From IMG/VR virus record IMGVR_UViG_3300025117_000032: a stretch of 64,000 nt of DNA; one strand, given 5' to 3'. Positions 7,654 to 46,655 of this stretch are shown piece after piece. Numbering within the stretch: the first letter of the stretch is position 1; each line of letters begins with the position of its first letter. The notes under the pieces were generated by a model. That model did no database searches. It was not told the origin of the DNA and saw nothing but the letters and a program-made list of their open reading frames with translations. A program made the translations under genes and the position numbers. This DNA is from a virus.

Positions 7654-8178
7654 TTACACCAACTTACCTTCTTTAAGCCACTTCTCTGTTAGCATGGTTA
7701 AGCTCACAGGAGAAAACTTCCATGGGTCAACTCCAACATCGCATCTAAACCCCTTATCCGGCACAGTACCGTGTCTGTGCCCATGAAGGTGTATGGAACC
7801 ATGACTCATGTTTCGCCAACTCTCAATTGGATAATGGAAGAGGACAACCAATTGCCCCTGGTCTTTTATCTCAAGGTAGGAATTTACAGACTTCCACCCA
7901 TCCCAATTTTTCATATTCTTGGCATCATGGTTGCCAATGATGAAATGCTTACGACCATTGATTTGCTTAAGGATATCTTTAACTTTTTCCCCACCATAAA
8001 AAGACACATCACCAAGGATGAATAGCTCATCATTTGGCTTCACCTTTTCATTCATTCCAGAAACAATGGCATCGTGCATTTCCCAGATAGTTTCAAATGG
8101 GCGATTGCAATACTTGATGATGTTGTTGTGGAAAAGCCTTCAAAGGTGAAAATCTGCGGTATAAAATCTTTCGCTCAT
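7654..8178 (-). CDS. Calcineurin-like metallophosphoesterase, interrupted at codon 13 (TGA + 6 nt)
   Basis: ATG 8178 MSERFYTADFHL*RL FHNNIIKYCNRPF in frame with downstream LGD, GNHD, HYP, HGHxH motifs. Confidence 0.85.
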
Positions 8179-8300
8179 TTCACCAAACCTCCAATCTTTC
8201 GTCCAATTAACCAACCATTATTTAGAAATTGATCAATCTCATTTTGACGAATCATTTTTGTTTCAACCCCATTGTTGATCCAAACTCTATTTTTTATCAA
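8175..8300 (-). pseudogene. Remnant C-terminal DNA-binding module of a homing endonuclease
   Basis: LIKNRVWINNGVETKMIRQNEIDQFLNNGWLIGRK aligns with the C-terminus of the 8571-9278 protein (RVWICKDDKTKMIRPDELTEYTNGGWLKGRK). Confidence 0.6.
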
Positions 8301-8570: not shown

Positions 8571-9278
8571 TCATTTTGCCTTACCTTTTCTTCCTTTTAA
8601 CCACCCACCATTAGTGTATTCAGTTAATTCATCCGGGCGAATCATTTTTGTTTTATCATCTTTACATATCCAAACTCTATCCAATTTACCGTTCCTCAAC
8701 TTTTCTTTCATTTCTTTTGTTCCCATTGCCTGCTTTGTTTTAGTACTTATGTTTCTTTTTCTTTCTTCTGAAAATGGAACCCCGGTTAATTTTTCTCGTA
8801 TTTTTTCTTTGGTTTCAATTGATCGTGGTTTACTAGACCAAGGGCATTTTTTTCCTTTGTGTATTTTGCTCAATTTCTCTCTTGTTTCTTTACTATGGTG
8901 CTTACCCAAAAAACTTGGGATTCTATTTTCACCCTTTGTTCTATATTCTTTATCCATCCACTTTGCTTTTATTTTATCAGATATTTTTTTCTTTGTTTCA
9001 TCTGCACACCTACCAAAAGAATTTCCGCCATTGTCAATATTGTAACCAACATACTCATCTTTACTATTCAACTCTTTAATCCAATGCTGCTCTTTCTCAT
9101 TCAATTCTTCTTGTGAAGAACACTCGCATAGATTTTCACGAACAAAATTCTGTCTTCCATATTTTTTAATGGCAGCTTGTAATTTCAACCCCGATCCAAT
9201 ATATCGCTTATTGTTTATTGTTGTTTGCCCAACATAAATTTTACCATTTACCAAGTTTGTTGTCTTGTATATTATCAT
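8571..9278 (-). CDS. GIY-YIG homing endonuclease with NUMOD3 repeats
   Basis: IIYKTTNLVNGKIYVGQ...YIGSG...E...GYNI; HSKETREKLS. Confidence 0.9.
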   Translation of the reverse strand: MIIYKTTNLVNGKIYVGQTTINNKRYIGSGLKLQAAIKKYGRQNFVRENLCECSSQEELNEKEQHWIKELNSKDEYVGYNIDNGGNSFGRCADETKKKISDKIKAKWMDKEYRTKGENRIPSFLGKHHSKETREKLSKIHKGKKCPWSSKPRSIETKEKIREKLTGVPFSEERKRNISTKTKQAMGTKEMKEKLRNGKLDRVWICKDDKTKMIRPDELTEYTNGGWLKGRKGKAK

Positions 9279-21815: not shown

Positions 21816-22550
21816 TCATTTTTTCTCCCATCGTTTTTTCTGGCTTAAACTCATTTTTAATCTTACTTCTTCTGATACTGGTTTCCTTTTTTTAGCAGCC
21901 TCACTCATTTTTTTTCTCTCATTTGGATCGGAAAAGCGTTTCTTAATTGCCACTGATAATGCTTCTCTATGAGATTTAGATTTTTTTCCCCCATATGAAT
22001 TTTTATACCACCCACGTTTGCTTTTTTCTAACCTTGTTTCACTTATCTTTTTCTTCGTTTTTTCACTATGTTCTTTTCCATACATTCCATTTGTTTCTCC
22101 TGTTAATCTAACTCCATACATTGGGTTGTTTTCTCCAGAATATTTCCCTTTGGCTTTTTCGCTCATTTTTTTCTTTGTTTCTTCGCTGTGTTTTTTTCCA
22201 TAAAATGGGTTTGTTTCTCCTGTTAATCTAACTCCATACATTGGGTTGTTTTCTCCAGGACTTGCCCCATCTCCACCAAGAGTTTGATTATATCCAGACC
22301 TAAATGTGCAATATTCTTCGATGTACTTTATTTCTAGTTTTCCAAGCTCCTCAAATAACAAAGTTTCATCAATTTTTTCTATGGAAAAATTTTCACTTCC
22401 ATATTTCCTGATTGCTCTTTGTATGGAACAATTGATTTTTAATGAGTTTGCATCATATATGTGTTTAAACCACCTTTTTTCCATAGTAAGAGTTGTTTTA
22501 CCAACATACTGTTTTCCATTTATTTTGTTTGTTATCAAATATATTACCAT
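21816..22550 (-). CDS. GIY-YIG homing endonuclease with NUMOD3 repeats
   Basis: VIYLITNKINGKQYVGKT...RAIRKYG...GYNQTLGG; HSEETKKKMS. Confidence 0.9.
   Translation of the reverse strand: MVIYLITNKINGKQYVGKTTLTMEKRWFKHIYDANSLKINCSIQRAIRKYGSENFSIEKIDETLLFEELGKLEIKYIEEYCTFRSGYNQTLGGDGASPGENNPMYGVRLTGETNPFYGKKHSEETKKKMSEKAKGKYSGENNPMYGVRLTGETNGMYGKEHSEKTKKKISETRLEKSKRGWYKNSYGGKKSKSHREALSVAIKKRFSDPNERKKMSEAAKKRKPVSEEVRLKMSLSQKKRWEKK
22090..22258. repeat. 49-bp exact direct repeat inside GIY-YIG gene
   Basis: 22090-22138 equals 22210-22258 (encodes GENNPMYGVRLTGETN twice). Confidence 0.9.
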
Positions 22551-22598: not shown

Positions 22599-23210
22599 TC
22601 ATTGTATCTTTGCCCACCTTTCTTTTTCAAACTGGCAGGCTTGCATGTCCGCTTGGTGAAGTAATAATGCCAACCAAGTTTCCTTGTGTGCATAGGGTTT
22701 GTTTTCTGGGGTGTATTGCCCATCGTGAATAATAATGGCTTGGTATTCTTCATCGGTAAGCTTTACACCAAAGTCTGTTAGGAGTTTTACGGATCTGATT
22801 GCTGTGCCAAGATATATAAGACTCTCATTATGCTCATACATCATCCCAAGCTTTTCTCTGTGCCACTGTGATTCATTGGGGAGGAAGTAATCTTCATTGA
22901 CCGTACCAACCTTTCCCAAATCATGAAACAGCCCACAGACAATGATTGAATCTTGGCTAATGTTTTTCTTGTTTGCCATAGTTGAAAGATTGGAATACAC
23001 CCTCATTGAGTGTTCCAACAACCCACCTGGGAAACAGTTGTGGTATTCTAGTCTGTTCGATGCTGGGGCAACAAAAAACCTGTTCCCAATCTCTGCCATC
23101 AAGTTCTCGATAGCAATCAGATTTTCAGTATTCTTTATCCCCTTGACAATCTCCGTGAATTTTTCAGATAGCTCTATGATTCTGCTATCTTCCAACCTAA
23201 ACTCTTTCAT
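22599..23210 (-). CDS. HD-domain phosphohydrolase
   Basis: APAS..YHNCFPGGLLEHS, LFHDLGK, HDG, LHQAD. Confidence 0.9.
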   Translation of the reverse strand: MKEFRLEDSRIIELSEKFTEIVKGIKNTENLIAIENLMAEIGNRFFVAPASNRLEYHNCFPGGLLEHSMRVYSNLSTMANKKNISQDSIIVCGLFHDLGKVGTVNEDYFLPNESQWHREKLGMMYEHNESLIYLGTAIRSVKLLTDFGVKLTDEEYQAIIIHDGQYTPENKPYAHKETWLALLLHQADMQACQFEKERWAKIQ

Positions 23211-23279: not shown

Positions 23280-23984
23280 TTATAGATAAACCCAATCTTT
23301 CCATTTTTTTGTTTTTGACTTTAATCTATTACTAATTGTCATTCTGGTAACACCAAACACCTTGCTTGCTTCATCTAAAGAATCAAACTGTCTACAACCA
23401 ACAACAAATGACTTATGTAGTTTGTGATTTTTACCACGCATTTTATCTGAAAACGATTCTCTATCTCTTTTTTCCCAGGATTTAGAAATCCCCCTGGATT
23501 GTTTTACTTTGAACTCTAGGCTCTCCATTATTCTTTTTTGTTTGTGCCTAAATTCACTATTTCCCCATAACTCGTTCATTATCTCTCTTGCCCTATTTTT
23601 TCTTTTTGGGGTGTTTTGTAATTTCTTTTGCGCTTCACACAATCTTTTTTTTGTCTCTGGACTATTCATCCTTAATTTGTGTTTAGTTTTTGCTTCGTTT
23701 GACCATTCTCTTCCACTAATTCCCCCTGTTTCTAGGTTGTATGTGTCTCTGCGAAAAACCCACTTGTGGTCAACATATTTTTCTTCTTCAATCATTTCTT
23801 CGTATGAAAACAACTCAACCAATATCTCCCTACTAAAGTTTTGTTTTCCATATTTTCGGATTGCTTTTGTAAGCAACACCCCTGACCCCAAATACCCATC
23901 ATTGAGATTTTTTGTTTTATGAACGCCCCTGTATTTTTTTCCATTTATCAAGTTTGTTGTTTCATAAAGAATGTAATACATCAT
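23280..23984 (-). CDS. GIY-YIG (Seg-like) homing endonuclease
   Basis: ILYETTNLINGKKYRGVHKT..LNDGYLGSG...TYNL..GG; C-terminal HTH (F.SL.EA..FG). Confidence 0.88.
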   Translation of the reverse strand: MMYYILYETTNLINGKKYRGVHKTKNLNDGYLGSGVLLTKAIRKYGKQNFSREILVELFSYEEMIEEEKYVDHKWVFRRDTYNLETGGISGREWSNEAKTKHKLRMNSPETKKRLCEAQKKLQNTPKRKNRAREIMNELWGNSEFRHKQKRIMESLEFKVKQSRGISKSWEKRDRESFSDKMRGKNHKLHKSFVVGCRQFDSLDEASKVFGVTRMTISNRLKSKTKKWKDWVYL

Positions 23985-25131
23985 GTTGAAAGTATTTTTC
24001 TATACCACTCACACCTTTCATTTGTAACATGCTCCAATGAATATTTTGGGTATACCAACTTATACAAATTTTCTGACAACTCTTTTCTCATTGCATCATC
24101 TAGTATCAGTTGCCGAATGTATTTGTGCCATAGCTTATGGTTTTTCCTTGGGTTGACCAACAACGCATTCTCCCTATGAGTTAACAACTGCTTGTAGACA
24201 TACAAATCAGATGCAATCAACGCTTTTTTGCACATACCAGTTTCAATTATCTTCAATTCAGACTTGCACTCATTGAATGTGTGTTCATCTAGCGGTGCCA
24301 AGCAAATGTCCACATGCTTATAGTGGTTTCCATATTGAGTTATGGGAAGTGTTGTCCTTCTTACATACTGTTCTGGTGTTGCCTTACCATTGTCGTTGAA
24401 TATGGCTTCAAATTTGTTCCATATGGACTCTTCTGGGGTTATTTTCCTTGTTCTTTCCTCTTTGGTTAGGGGATGTAATTCAGTAACAGTTCCCCTTGTG
24501 TCATATCCACACATAACAACCTGAATCTTACTAGCAATCTCCTTATCATTGAACAACACATTGAAAGTGCCCTTGATTTTGTCCAAATCTCTCTCATGAC
24601 TTGAGCCACCAATCCAACCAACCCTAACTCTATCTGATTCTGTGGTTGGGTTTTGCCACATCTTCAAATTGGGATCAATAGCATTTGGTATGATGTGAAC
24701 ATTTTTGTTTATGGTCCTTCTTATGTGTTCTGCATAGATTTCTGTGGTTGTTGTAACCCAATCAGCGCACCTTAGATTTTCAATGATTTGGTGATGGATA
24801 CCCTTCGCCACAACCATGTGATAAGCTGGGTGCCCAAAAAACGGCAGCCAGAAGTCGTCAATATCAGAAACAACAATCGCACCGGCTGTGCGAAATTTAT
24901 CAGCCCATAGTGGGGTTGTTTCAGGTTCGGCGATGCGTCTGTGATAGTGGACAATATCAAACTCCCCTATATCGTCCTCTGTTATTGGTTGCATTAGTCT
25001 AATGTCAACCTCAAACTCTTCCCCATGGTTTTTTTGTATCTCTTGTGCAACCCAAATTGATCGGTAAGCTAATAGTGCCCAACACCATAAGAATCGCTGG
25101 GTATGATTAAAATTCTAATTTTGTTGGGCAC
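23981..25131 (-). CDS. GT-B glycosyltransferase, interrupted after codon 20 (TAG + 5 nt)
   Basis: GTG 25131 MPNKIRILIIPSDSYGVGHY [TAGCTTAC] RSIWVAQ... continues in frame into ORF 23981-24994 (DIDD, GWIGGSSHERDL, FNECKSELKIIE). Confidence 0.85.
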
Positions 25132-25138
25132 TATTTGA

Positions 25139-25696
25139 TCACCCACCTTTAATGAATCTGTCATATCTTTCATATAACTCTTCTTTCGTTATTGAACACT
25201 TTGCGTGCTTCGAACTGTTTTCCCCACGATATATTATGCTAAGATTGATAACGCAACCAATTATATGCGGGGGAACATCTTGTTTAAACCCCTCTAGGAC
25301 ACTAAAATTATGATCCAATGTGTATCCAGATGGTTGCAATATGTGTTTTGTTTGGATATATTCACTGTAATTTTCCAGTAAAGATATATCGGAATGCTTT
25401 GTGTACAAATTTACCAACTGTTTATATGCTTCCCATTTTGTTTTTGCAGAAAGTGGTGTCCAATATCCAGTTGACTCATGGTGGACCCTTATGCTATCTC
25501 TATTCTTTTCGTAAAAATTTTTTGATGCATCTGCGATTTTCATTAAACCAGGGTGGCATTCTTTTGTTAAACCTTTATTCCATGTGTCTAATCCAGAATG
25601 AGCGCAAGGTCTGCATTTCCAATTTTTATGCCGCCTTGTCCAATATCTTGGAAAAACTCTAATTAACCCACAGCCAACACAAGTTGCAGTATACAT
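25139..25696 (-). CDS. Putative HNH-type homing endonuclease
   Basis: CxxC..CxxC, WNKGLTK, YTLDHNFSV..GF...NL...ENSSK. Confidence 0.7.
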   Translation of the reverse strand: MYTATCVGCGLIRVFPRYWTRRHKNWKCRPCAHSGLDTWNKGLTKECHPGLMKIADASKNFYEKNRDSIRVHHESTGYWTPLSAKTKWEAYKQLVNLYTKHSDISLLENYSEYIQTKHILQPSGYTLDHNFSVLEGFKQDVPPHIIGCVINLSIIYRGENSSKHAKCSITKEELYERYDRFIKGG

Positions 25697-25762: not shown

Positions 25763-26122
25763 TCATATTATGTGTAAATTTTCCTCTCCATGAAACTCGA
25801 CAAACTTCTTTATGGTGTCCCTTGTGCCATGTCCTGGATCTCCAGGGGCAGCGATGAGAACATCCGAAAACTTTGCTATATCCGTGTTACAAACAAACCC
25901 AGCACGCTTACCGTGCGTTTTCCAATCAGCAGGAAACTCAAGGTATGGTAGTTTACGATCAAGATGGATGTAGTGGGCAAAGCTATCCGCACCCCTGGAA
26001 CAACCACCAGAGCATATCCAATCTCCTGGTTGGTATATCACATCGAACACTTCCAGAATTTTCAACAATGTATTTGGGTTCTCACGATTCCTAGAACCTA
26101 CAATACCAATGATTTTCCCCAT
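25763..26122 (-). CDS. SLOG-superfamily protein (YspA/DUF2493-like)
   Basis: IGIVGSR, SGGCSRGAD, FPADWKTHGKRAG...N..IA..SD, GT..TI. Confidence 0.8.
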   Translation of the reverse strand: MGKIIGIVGSRNRENPNTLLKILEVFDVIYQPGDWICSGGCSRGADSFAHYIHLDRKLPYLEFPADWKTHGKRAGFVCNTDIAKFSDVLIAAPGDPGHGTRDTIKKFVEFHGEENLHII

Positions 26123-45567: not shown

Positions 45568-46599
45568 GTTTCATTCTCCTTTGTTTGAACACCAGTTCTG
45601 AAAATGTATGTTCCCAATCCTCATAGTATTTCACTTGATGGTTTAGTTTGTCACCCAGGAACATCATCCTCAATCTGATATCGTTAAATCGTTGTGGTTT
45701 ACTGTTCACCAATTCATCAATTTGTTTCTTGGCTTGGAGACTGATATTAACTCTTGTCAATTGCATCAATTCCCAATTAGCCTGTATCAAATCTTGGTTG
45801 TCAACCACAACCTGATATTTGCCCAACATTTTCCCAGCGTTACCACTGTCCAAAGCGTGTTGAGCCATGTTAACCAATTCCGTCACGTTCTCAATCTTTT
45901 CTATAGAGACAATCGGGAACATTTTGAGATAAGTCTTTTCCCCTATTCCCTTTACACCAGAAATCCCATCACTCTTGTCACCATTTAGACACTTGAAGTA
46001 GATATGATTCCCAGGTAAATATCCATGCTTGCTGAAAAAAGCTTTCTCGTTTGTCAACATTTTCACTGTTGGATTGTAGCATGAAACTCTCTCATTTACC
46101 AACTGCTTGAAATCAGCGTCAGTTGAGTAAATAATAGCTTCACAATCTTTTTCCATCGAACCAACAATCTCTGCTATGATATCGTCTGCCTCTACATATG
46201 GGATTGATATTACCTTGATTGGCAACACCCCCAAATATTCTGAAAGACGACCTAGCTGGAATGAGAAGTTTGTATCCCTATCGTTCTCATTCAAAAAATC
46301 GTAAGCTTTCACCACCCCCTTTTTGAATTCCTTTTTCCTGTTTGCTTTGTAGTTTTTATTCTGGAGCTTCCTCTTTAGTCCAGAGTTTGGTCCATCCATT
46401 ATAACATAAACTTCGTCAGGAGTAAACATATTAATGGCAGTTTTCATGCTACGGAGTGTTCCAAATACAGCACCATAATGTTCACCATCAATGTTTGTAA
46501 CTTCCACGACATGAAAGCTTCGTATGAACATGCCTAATTATAGAAATCAACCAGTAACAATTTTTTCCTATAATTATTTACTATCCGATTTCTATCCAC
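45560..46599 (-). CDS. 5'-3' exonuclease / T4 RNase H-like, interrupted after codon 21 (TAG + 2 nt)
   Basis: GTG 46599 MDRNRIVNNYRKKLLLVDFYN [TAGGC] MFIRSF...; YKANR, EADDIIA, STDADFKQL, GDKSDGISGVKGIG. Confidence 0.88.
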
Positions 46600-46655
46600 T
46601 TGCATCACCCCACCTTCTCTCCCAAACCATCTTGGTTAATATACTAATTTTCTAA

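Follow-up and report, generated by a model that had tools for sequence, protein, structure and literature searches.

The 64,000-nucleotide (nt) stretch of viral DNA analysed here (IMG/VR virus record IMGVR_UViG_3300025117_000032; hereafter, the window) carries a GT-B glycosyltransferase gene that is interrupted close to its 5′ end by a stop codon and a few surplus nucleotides, at the very foot of a perfect 14-base-pair (bp) hairpin stem. We consider it probable that this interruption is the immunity insert of a homing-endonuclease cassette and that ribosomes decode it by a short-range hop, with the hairpin re-forming behind them; as part of the same reading, the host gene, which would belong to a large (T4-like), uncultured phage of groundwater, would encode a working GT-B glycosyltransferase. 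With a little less assurance, we place the element in a natural family of programmed ‘stop-hops’ over 5–12 nt, driven by hairpins and carried as the immunity inserts of HNH cassettes.

Positions given below are on the minus strand of the window unless said otherwise (Table 1). Intact homologues of the glycosyltransferase begin MxKIKVLIxPSDxxGVGHYRSIWPAQEIQKNH, and the surplus in the window falls within the invariant motif of this segment. Protein alignment sets the surplus relative to intact homologues at exactly 8 nt, landing codon counted. Skipping exactly 8 nt, as the original prediction proposed, joins the N-terminal segment to the open reading frame (ORF) that ends at 23981, gives a product of 380 amino acids (aa) against 379–383 aa in intact homologues and restores the consensus of 35 homologues, PSDxxGVGHYRSIW, in agreement with the D..G.G.YR-type N-terminal motif that had been expected. 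The resumed frame matches Pfam Glycos_transf_1 (PF00534) at 28.9 bits (cut-off 26.4) and the gene matches the PHROG glycosyltransferase family phrog_7162 at 3e-36; assignment to GT-B (Glycos_transf_1/GT4-like) draws on a C-terminal domain above the Pfam threshold together with the N-terminal glycine-rich loop. Gene callers annotate a 337-aa ORF that starts at ATG 24994.

Four runs, from as many studies of groundwater and soil metagenomes, yielded contigs with the identical interrupted sequence, free of variants; some of these samples may be the window’s own source. Separate ENA and Logan assemblies give the same sequence. These observations exclude an assembly error or a fold-back chimera, the latter a concern already raised with the original prediction. 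Among cultured phages, a blastn search with the window returned a single match, to an 82-nt stretch of a capsid gene, and tblastn with the glycosyltransferase found no close relative (≤31% identity).

Direct reading and a repeat search both recover the 14-bp perfect inverted repeat (25135–25122 with 25084–25071) in which, as first described, a GTG is paired with the region that encodes GVGHY; the 3′ arm spans these five codons and the first T of the TAG stop. The perfect pair is embedded in a 32-nt inverted repeat that is 81% complementary. Folding of the minus strand, suggested at the outset, yields a stable hairpin: RNA from 25160 to 25040 folds at −39.6 kcal/mol (z = −5.47) and an 87-nt core at −33.3 kcal/mol (z = −7.35), with none of 200 shuffled sequences equally stable. 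The claim that such a stem would hardly arise by chance also stands, as no perfect stem of at least 11 bp occurs in 1,568 background 9-nt windows of the same genes, in which the per-site probability is 0.07 for at least 7 bp and 0.005 for at least 9 bp. A small hairpin within the loop could nucleate the main stem according to the predicted structures. An outer helix in the minimum free energy (MFE) structure places the gap of the window in an internal loop, and MFE structures of five relatives (L010, L011, L032, L038 and L041; Table 2) contain similar outer helices.

Table 1 Features of the interrupted glycosyltransferase locus in the window
Feature	Position	Strand	Details
End of N-terminal segment, reading ...KIRILIIPSDSYGVGHY	up to TAT 25074–25072	minus	
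Take-off codon TAT (Tyr)	25072..25074	minus	Final codon of N-terminal segment; direct reading
Coding gap TAGCT	25067..25071	minus	Stop TAG 25071–25069, then CT 25068–25067
Landing codon TAC (Tyr)	25064..25066	minus	Synonymous with take-off TAT
Resumed frame, GT-B glycosyltransferase	23981..25063	minus	CGA (Arg, 25063–25061) to stop; 360 codons
5′ arm of 14-bp stem, AATAGTGCCCAACA	25122..25135	minus	Repeat search and RNA fold
3′ arm of 14-bp stem, TGTTGGGCACTATT	25071..25084	minus	Ends 1 nt beyond take-off codon
Small inner loop hairpin	25090..25116	minus	25116–25111 with 25095–25090; MFE structures
3′ strand of outer helix, UUACC	25063..25067	minus	Over landing codon; pairs with GGUGA 25143–25139; MFE structure
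Candidate start ATG	25171..25173	minus	In frame with N-terminal segment; overlaps nuclease ORF; ORF 25173..25069 in ORF list
Alternative candidate start GTG	25129..25131	minus	Inside 5′ arm
Shine–Dalgarno-like AGGTGGG	25142..25148	minus	10 nt upstream of GTG 25131
185-aa ORF, candidate HNH-type free-standing homing endonuclease	25139..25696	minus	Motifs, weak fold matches

For homologues that are called short in the protein database, we fetched the DNA and read the upstream region in three frames. Scans of IMG/VR yielded four loci, and most alleles came from a metagenome scan and exact-protein look-ups. This gave 13 further alleles of the gene (56–83% aa identity) with 16 further gaps, or 17 gaps in 14 alleles with the window included (Table 2). 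The gaps lie at four positions inside seven codons (Y/F-G-V-G-H-Y-R) and amount to a surplus of 5, 7, 8, 9 or 12 nt. All 17 take-off codons, which specify Gly or Tyr, are followed at once by TAA, TAG or TGA. In eight gaps, take-off and landing codons are synonymous; in the other nine, the landing codon permits two of three anticodon pairs. None of the gaps, which are short and AT-rich, has a Shine–Dalgarno-like motif. Some are in frame (L010, L011, L040, L041 and L032, the last with tandem TAA TGA) and others shift the frame; L009 and L010 are one gap nucleotide apart. Three alleles carry two gaps each, and the 4–5 codons between them stay in register and conserved. Since in-frame and out-of-frame gaps occur side by side, a frame-independent mechanism is needed, and on the sequences at hand only such a mechanism fits all of them.

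Table 2 Seventeen gaps in 14 alleles of the glycosyltransferase gene
Allele	Take-off	Gap	Landing	Resume	Remarks
Window	TAT	TAGCT	TAC	CGA	
L004	GGT	TGAAT	GGA	CAC	
L009	GGT	TAACT	GAT	CAT	
L010	GGT	TAAATT	GAT	CAT	In frame
L011	GGT	TAAGTTATT	GGT	GTA	In frame
L013	TAT	TG	AAC	AGG	
L014	GGT	TAATT	GGG	GTT	
L032	GGA	TAATGA	GGT	GTC	Two stops; in frame
L038	GGT	TAATT	GGA	GTA	
L040	GGT	TAGCTT	CGC	CAT	In frame
L041	GGT	TGAATT	CGC	CAT	In frame
L035	GGT	TAACTA	GGT		First of two gaps
L035	TAT	TAGG	TGC		Second of two gaps
L037	GGT	TAACT	GGT		First of two gaps
L037	TAT	TAGT	TGC		Second of two gaps
L039	TAC	TG	AAC		First of two gaps
L039	TAT	TAAG	TGT		Second of two gaps

Every gap has its own hairpin. At each of the 17, a perfect Watson–Crick stem of 7–14 bp has its 3′ end at −3 to +1 nt relative to the final base of the take-off codon, and the double-gap alleles have two nested stems, an inner stem that ends at the first take-off codon and an outer stem that ends at the second one. 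Arm sequences vary among alleles because local codon usage shapes the 3′ arm and the 5′ arm changes to match it. Covariation among relatives, a check put forward with the original prediction, was counted formally for the site-1 and site-3 stems (the core of the site-2 stem is invariant). At site 1, 91.7% of cells are paired against 18–40% in slid controls, with none of 500 shuffles as high and four pairs changed on both sides; at site 3, the site of the window itself, 96.4% are paired against 31–47%, with three compensatory pairs. In the MAFFT alignments, the 5′ arms were wrongly placed for L038 (A3) and for the site-2 group (A4). Fold z-scores range from −2.3 to −7.6 in all 14 gapped alleles, for segments that were picked around the stems and hence somewhat in their favour, versus −0.75 to +1.5 over the equivalent stretch of six intact alleles, which have no gap and whose best stems reach only 5–6 bp. 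Neither stem length nor stem offset showed a ruler-like relation to gap length across the 17 gaps. The hairpin-aided hop from TAT to TAC that was originally proposed is strongly backed by comparative data: recurrent gaps, each with a stem, covariation of the arms, and intact alleles that have neither gap nor stem.

Beyond the resume codon, the frame is complete in 14 of 14 alleles (357–370 codons). Between alleles, dN is about 0.27 and dN/dS is at most 0.28, an upper-bound style figure from 16 finite pairs, as dS is saturated for most pairs. By these measures purifying selection acts on the rest of the glycosyltransferase gene, which is intact. Synonymous changes, among them switches of serine between TCN and AGY codons, leave the protein sequence of the N-terminal segment unaltered, and the stretch of 24 codons that leads from the resume point to ATG 24994 is likewise conserved at the protein level. 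On the 3′ side of the gaps, the alleles share no conserved start codon. The kept frame, register and N-terminal sequence are hard to reconcile with a pseudogene or a protein made in two pieces. Gene callers, for their part, truncate or split all of these gapped genes.

The gaps are linked to a candidate nuclease gene. In the window, a 185-aa ORF sits between the glycosyltransferase and a conserved neighbour gene of 119 aa (25763–26122). An alignment of seven homologues of this ORF shows invariant CxxC...CxxC (Cys4) and DH..N..N..K motifs, and four of the seven family members have NUMOD3. Searches with the ORF gave no Pfam match at E ≤ 0.1, only chance matches in a PDB profile search and no Foldseek match at E ≤ 0.001; its weak fold matches are dominated by HNH proteins, the best being the Gme HNH nicking endonuclease (Z = 4.4, root-mean-square deviation 5.0 over 69 residues). 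Distant relatives found by tblastn lie in T4-like Klebsiella and Raoultella phages and are partly annotated as homing endonucleases. One cultured phage, Campylobacter phage vB_CjeM_WX1 (OP654737.1, 154015–154539), has the sole match over 96% of the HNH-like ORF, at 29% identity; this match adjoins or overlaps an annotated gene for the alpha subunit of a class Ia ribonucleotide reductase.

The HNH-type ORF, or a 3′ remnant of it (the last ~40 nt), lies directly upstream in 14 of 14 gapped alleles and in none of the six intact ones; L006 and L043, both intact, have the glycosyltransferase right next to the conserved gene that corresponds to 25763–26122. Among alleles the nuclease is more diverged (31–66%) than the glycosyltransferase (56–83%). 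L014, L035, L037, L038 and L039 have a decayed nuclease gene or have lost it, yet gap, stems and glycosyltransferase gene persist. Comparison of gapped L032 with intact L042 gives 83–95% nucleotide identity downstream of the gap versus 62% in the 42 nt (14 codons) upstream, which in sequence terms is the signature of a cassette border. The arrangement is like that of MobA: the nuclease ORF is present or absent among collinear relatives, it lies between genes, and identity breaks at the border. L032 (1354–1423) and L042 (1501–1571), whose glycosyltransferases are 95.6% identical in aa, form a natural pair with and without the cassette. Two further ORFs of the window resemble GIY-YIG/I-TevI-like homing endonucleases (21816–22550 and 23280–23984, both minus strand; phrog_314, about 1e-40); they flank an HD-domain gene (22599–23210) immediately downstream of the glycosyltransferase. 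Judged by its gene content, the region is a hotspot for selfish nucleases.

From the anatomy of the gaps, their recurrence, the covariation, the nuclease link and the integrity of the gene, we infer hopping, a role for the hairpin as its driver and a role for the insert in immunity. The cassette would consist of the upstream nuclease ORF, a short leader with the 5′ arm in it, the opening codons of the glycosyltransferase and the insert TAG CT TAC. By analogy with T4 gene 60 and MobA, an insert inside the conserved DNA that encodes GVGHYR would destroy the target of the nuclease and make the carrier immune, and this context would explain why a gap exists at all. A ribosome would arrive with TAT in the P site and the TAG stop in the A site. 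Slow decoding of the A site would allow the peptidyl-tRNA-Tyr to release its codon; the 5′ arm, by then already outside the ribosome, would zip up with the emerging 3′ arm and pull the mRNA forward; and the tRNA would pair again 8 nt onward at TAC, with decoding restarting at CGA. The predicted product is a single protein of 380 aa, or of 394 aa if translation starts at ATG 25173.

Several points weigh against hopping from a nuclease cassette. A take-off stem-loop 3′ of the take-off codon, which gene 60 requires, is absent, and no nascent-peptide signal was identified: the conserved N terminus and the variable leader contain no KKYK-like motif. Nine of the 17 landing codons are not synonymous with their take-off codon, and at these the resume point is therefore set by protein alignment. 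Once the take-off codon occupied the P site, the 3′ arm would lie within the ribosome, so that a move of 5–12 nt would let only part of the stem form. Because the cassette moves horizontally, the divergence of the alleles need not all postdate the interruption. The assignment of the nuclease, finally, is made from motifs and weak fold matches.

Of the other explanations, inactivation is improbable. In that case the gene would be dead or dispensable, collateral damage of the nuclease cassette, and the hairpin would repress translation or stabilize or process the nuclease mRNA. Invasion by a homing endonuclease can indeed leave scars, accessory glycosyltransferases can be dispensable, and the 5′ arm lies at the ribosome-binding region. 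However, the uninterrupted codons and low dN/dS described above hold for all 14 alleles, the N-terminal segment and the 4–5 inter-gap codons are conserved in register, and it is the nuclease gene that decays in five alleles, the glycosyltransferase in none of these. The stem moreover ends within 4 nt of the take-off codon at all 17 gaps, which a repressor at the start site would not require. Still less probable is a protein in two pieces, that is, an N-terminal peptide of 20–34 aa and a C-terminal fragment whose translation restarts behind the stop or at ATG 24994, with the fragments assembling or the larger one acting by itself. Such a split has a precedent in the T4 topoisomerase, whose gene is split by MobA; the annotated 337-aa ORF does begin at ATG 24994, and in L004 a TTG overlaps the gap. 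Yet no conserved start follows the gaps, the 24 codons ahead of ATG 24994 are kept as protein, and the double-gap alleles would release a peptide of 4–5 residues. The first β-strand and glycine loop of a GT-B enzyme would also be unlikely to work as a separate 20-mer.

Conventional recoding, which we regard as very unlikely, would take the form of −1 or +2 frameshifting where the gap is out of frame and, where it is in frame, of stop-codon readthrough, a suppressor tRNA or an altered code. Every gap does open with the stop, and in the window frame B is open from about 25112, which leaves a 44-nt overlap within which a −1 shift at any point would link the frames. But there is no slippery heptamer, nor X XXY YYZ or an equivalent at CAC TAT TAG; the near-identical elements of L009 and L010, which differ by 1 nt, would need two mechanisms; and L032 has two stops in tandem. 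TAA, TAG and TGA all occur as gap stops and also end neighbouring genes, and a tRNA scan of the window found none, so no phage suppressor tRNA is encoded there. The products would also gain 1–4 extra residues within an invariant motif. Least likely of all is that the surplus bases are removed from, or absent in, the nucleic acid, through RNA editing or processing, transcriptional slippage, an insert-free DNA subpopulation or an artefact of assembly. The contigs from four runs and four studies are identical with no indel variant, independent assemblies agree, and 13 diverged alleles have different gaps. The gap has no homopolymer and is not bracketed by the hairpin, and we know of no system that excises 5–12 nt from bacterial mRNA.

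Two start codons compete in the hop-decoded gene. The original prediction had the GTG at 25131 as the start, paired so as to limit initiation. The GTG does lie in the 5′ arm; its role as a start and the predicted limit on initiation are unconfirmed, as it is there as the complement of a His codon and an upstream ATG is present in 12 of 14 alleles. The start-like codon of the 5′ arm mirrors the His codon of the 3′ arm (in the window, 25129–25131 and 25075–25077): CAC pairs with GTG in the window, L035, L037 and L039, and CAT pairs with ATG in L013 (L013:1545–1547), both complements being valid start codons. GTG 25131 is preceded by a good Shine–Dalgarno sequence, and a GGTGA motif is kept in all gapped alleles. 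Of the 14 alleles, 12 keep the upstream ATG in frame and with a Shine–Dalgarno sequence of its own; L004 carries GTG at this place, and the ATG of L010 is out of frame. L035, L038 and L039 retain ATG and Shine–Dalgarno sequence despite loss of the nuclease gene, which points to the ATG as the start in use in gapped alleles and to a 14-residue leader that is translated through the 5′ arm. In these three alleles the HNH deletion halts just upstream of the Shine–Dalgarno sequence and in-frame ATG (L035:1330–1400, L038:1255–1300 and L039:1330–1400), leaving a leader of ~15 codons that holds the 5′ arm or arms. For the window, ATG 25173 is as good a candidate as GTG 25131.

To our knowledge, T4 gene 60 has long been the sole established case of programmed bypassing in phages. 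It lies in a MobA cassette, in which the insert shields its carrier from the nuclease and ribosomes bypass the insert (10.1101/2022.08.31.505936), and mRNA pairing at the ribosome exit has been proposed as the forward driver (10.1101/2024.12.09.627546). As in gene 60, a non-coding insert lies here near the 5′ end of an enzyme gene and adjoins the gene of a free-standing homing endonuclease; a stop follows at once on the take-off codon, which is often Gly; a matched landing codon stands beside the resume codon (TAT to TAC in the window; 8 of 17 synonymous, the rest matched at two of three positions); and an upstream stem-loop would form from mRNA leaving the ribosome. The cassette further resembles that of MobA in being present or absent among relatives, in the decay of its nuclease (‘hit and run’) and in the sharp break of identity at the insert. 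In contrast to gene 60, the gap is 5–12 nt rather than 50 nt, no Shine–Dalgarno-like GAG precedes the landing site, only 20–34 residues come before take-off with no recognized nascent-peptide signal among them, and there is no take-off or A-site stem-loop; the take-off codon instead stands at the 3′ end of the stem, and in the window the 5-nt gap that follows it holds no hairpin. The 3′ arm contains this codon and is strongly conserved, whereas the 5′ stem-loop of gene 60 lies 9 nt upstream and is poorly conserved. The host gene and the nuclease family are also different, and a gene may have up to two gaps, in four alternative positions. The element may thus be a minimal bypass element, with neither take-off stem-loop nor long gap.

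The short distance recalls the synthetic or low-level ‘stop-hops’ of Escherichia coli, in which 9 nt specify one amino acid (PMC5009743). There too, the peptidyl-tRNA clears a stop and lands on a matched codon a few nucleotides away, independently of frame and triggered by a slow A site. Those events are unprogrammed and inefficient and have no stimulatory structure, whereas here each proposed hop has a covarying hairpin and the gene would depend on it. According to a 2016 review, no natural use of stop-hops was known, and shorter natural counterparts had long been presumed with none on record (PMC5009743). The byps of Magnusiomyces capitatus, mitochondrial inserts of 27–55 nt in essential genes (PMC5009743; 10.1101/2022.08.31.505936), are likewise mobile, tolerate an imperfect match of take-off and landing codons (two of three positions) and can occur several to a gene. 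They differ in having an unused sense codon in the A site, in spreading like GC clusters, and in lacking a homing endonuclease and a start-proximal hairpin.

A survey published in 2022 found only homologues of gene 60 (10.1101/2022.08.31.505936), and our literature search found no paper that describes a short-gap hairpin element; the sequence data argue for a short-range version of the gene 60 bypass that has not yet been documented in nature. If this is true, the locus would provide a natural short hop, with 17 variants in gap length, frame, stop, landing codon, stem and position. These would be a ready mutational series on whether mRNA pairing at the exit site suffices for a hop, and would generalize the principle that homing endonucleases shield their carriers with inserts that ribosomes must skip.

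Similar gaps occur elsewhere in the window. In an RNase H/FEN-like gene (46529–46605, minus strand), ...LLLVDFYN ends at the take-off codon AAT and is followed by TAG GC and then ATG TTC; a 9-bp stem (46595–46587 with 46548–46540) ends 3 nt before the end of AAT. The ATG directly after this gap makes re-initiation a live alternative there. A metallophosphoesterase gene (8134–8184, minus strand) reads CAC CTT TGA AGG CTT TTC in its D-x-H motif, a 9-nt in-frame surplus with CTT as both take-off and landing codon; a 7-bp stem (8184–8178 with 8151–8145) stops 2 nt short of the end of the take-off codon, and a GIY-YIG nuclease gene (8571–9278) lies upstream. As read from the sequence, both gaps fit the pattern of the glycosyltransferase, and the presence of such gaps in at least two further genes of this genome suggests that the strategy may be general within a clade of uncultured, T4-like phages.

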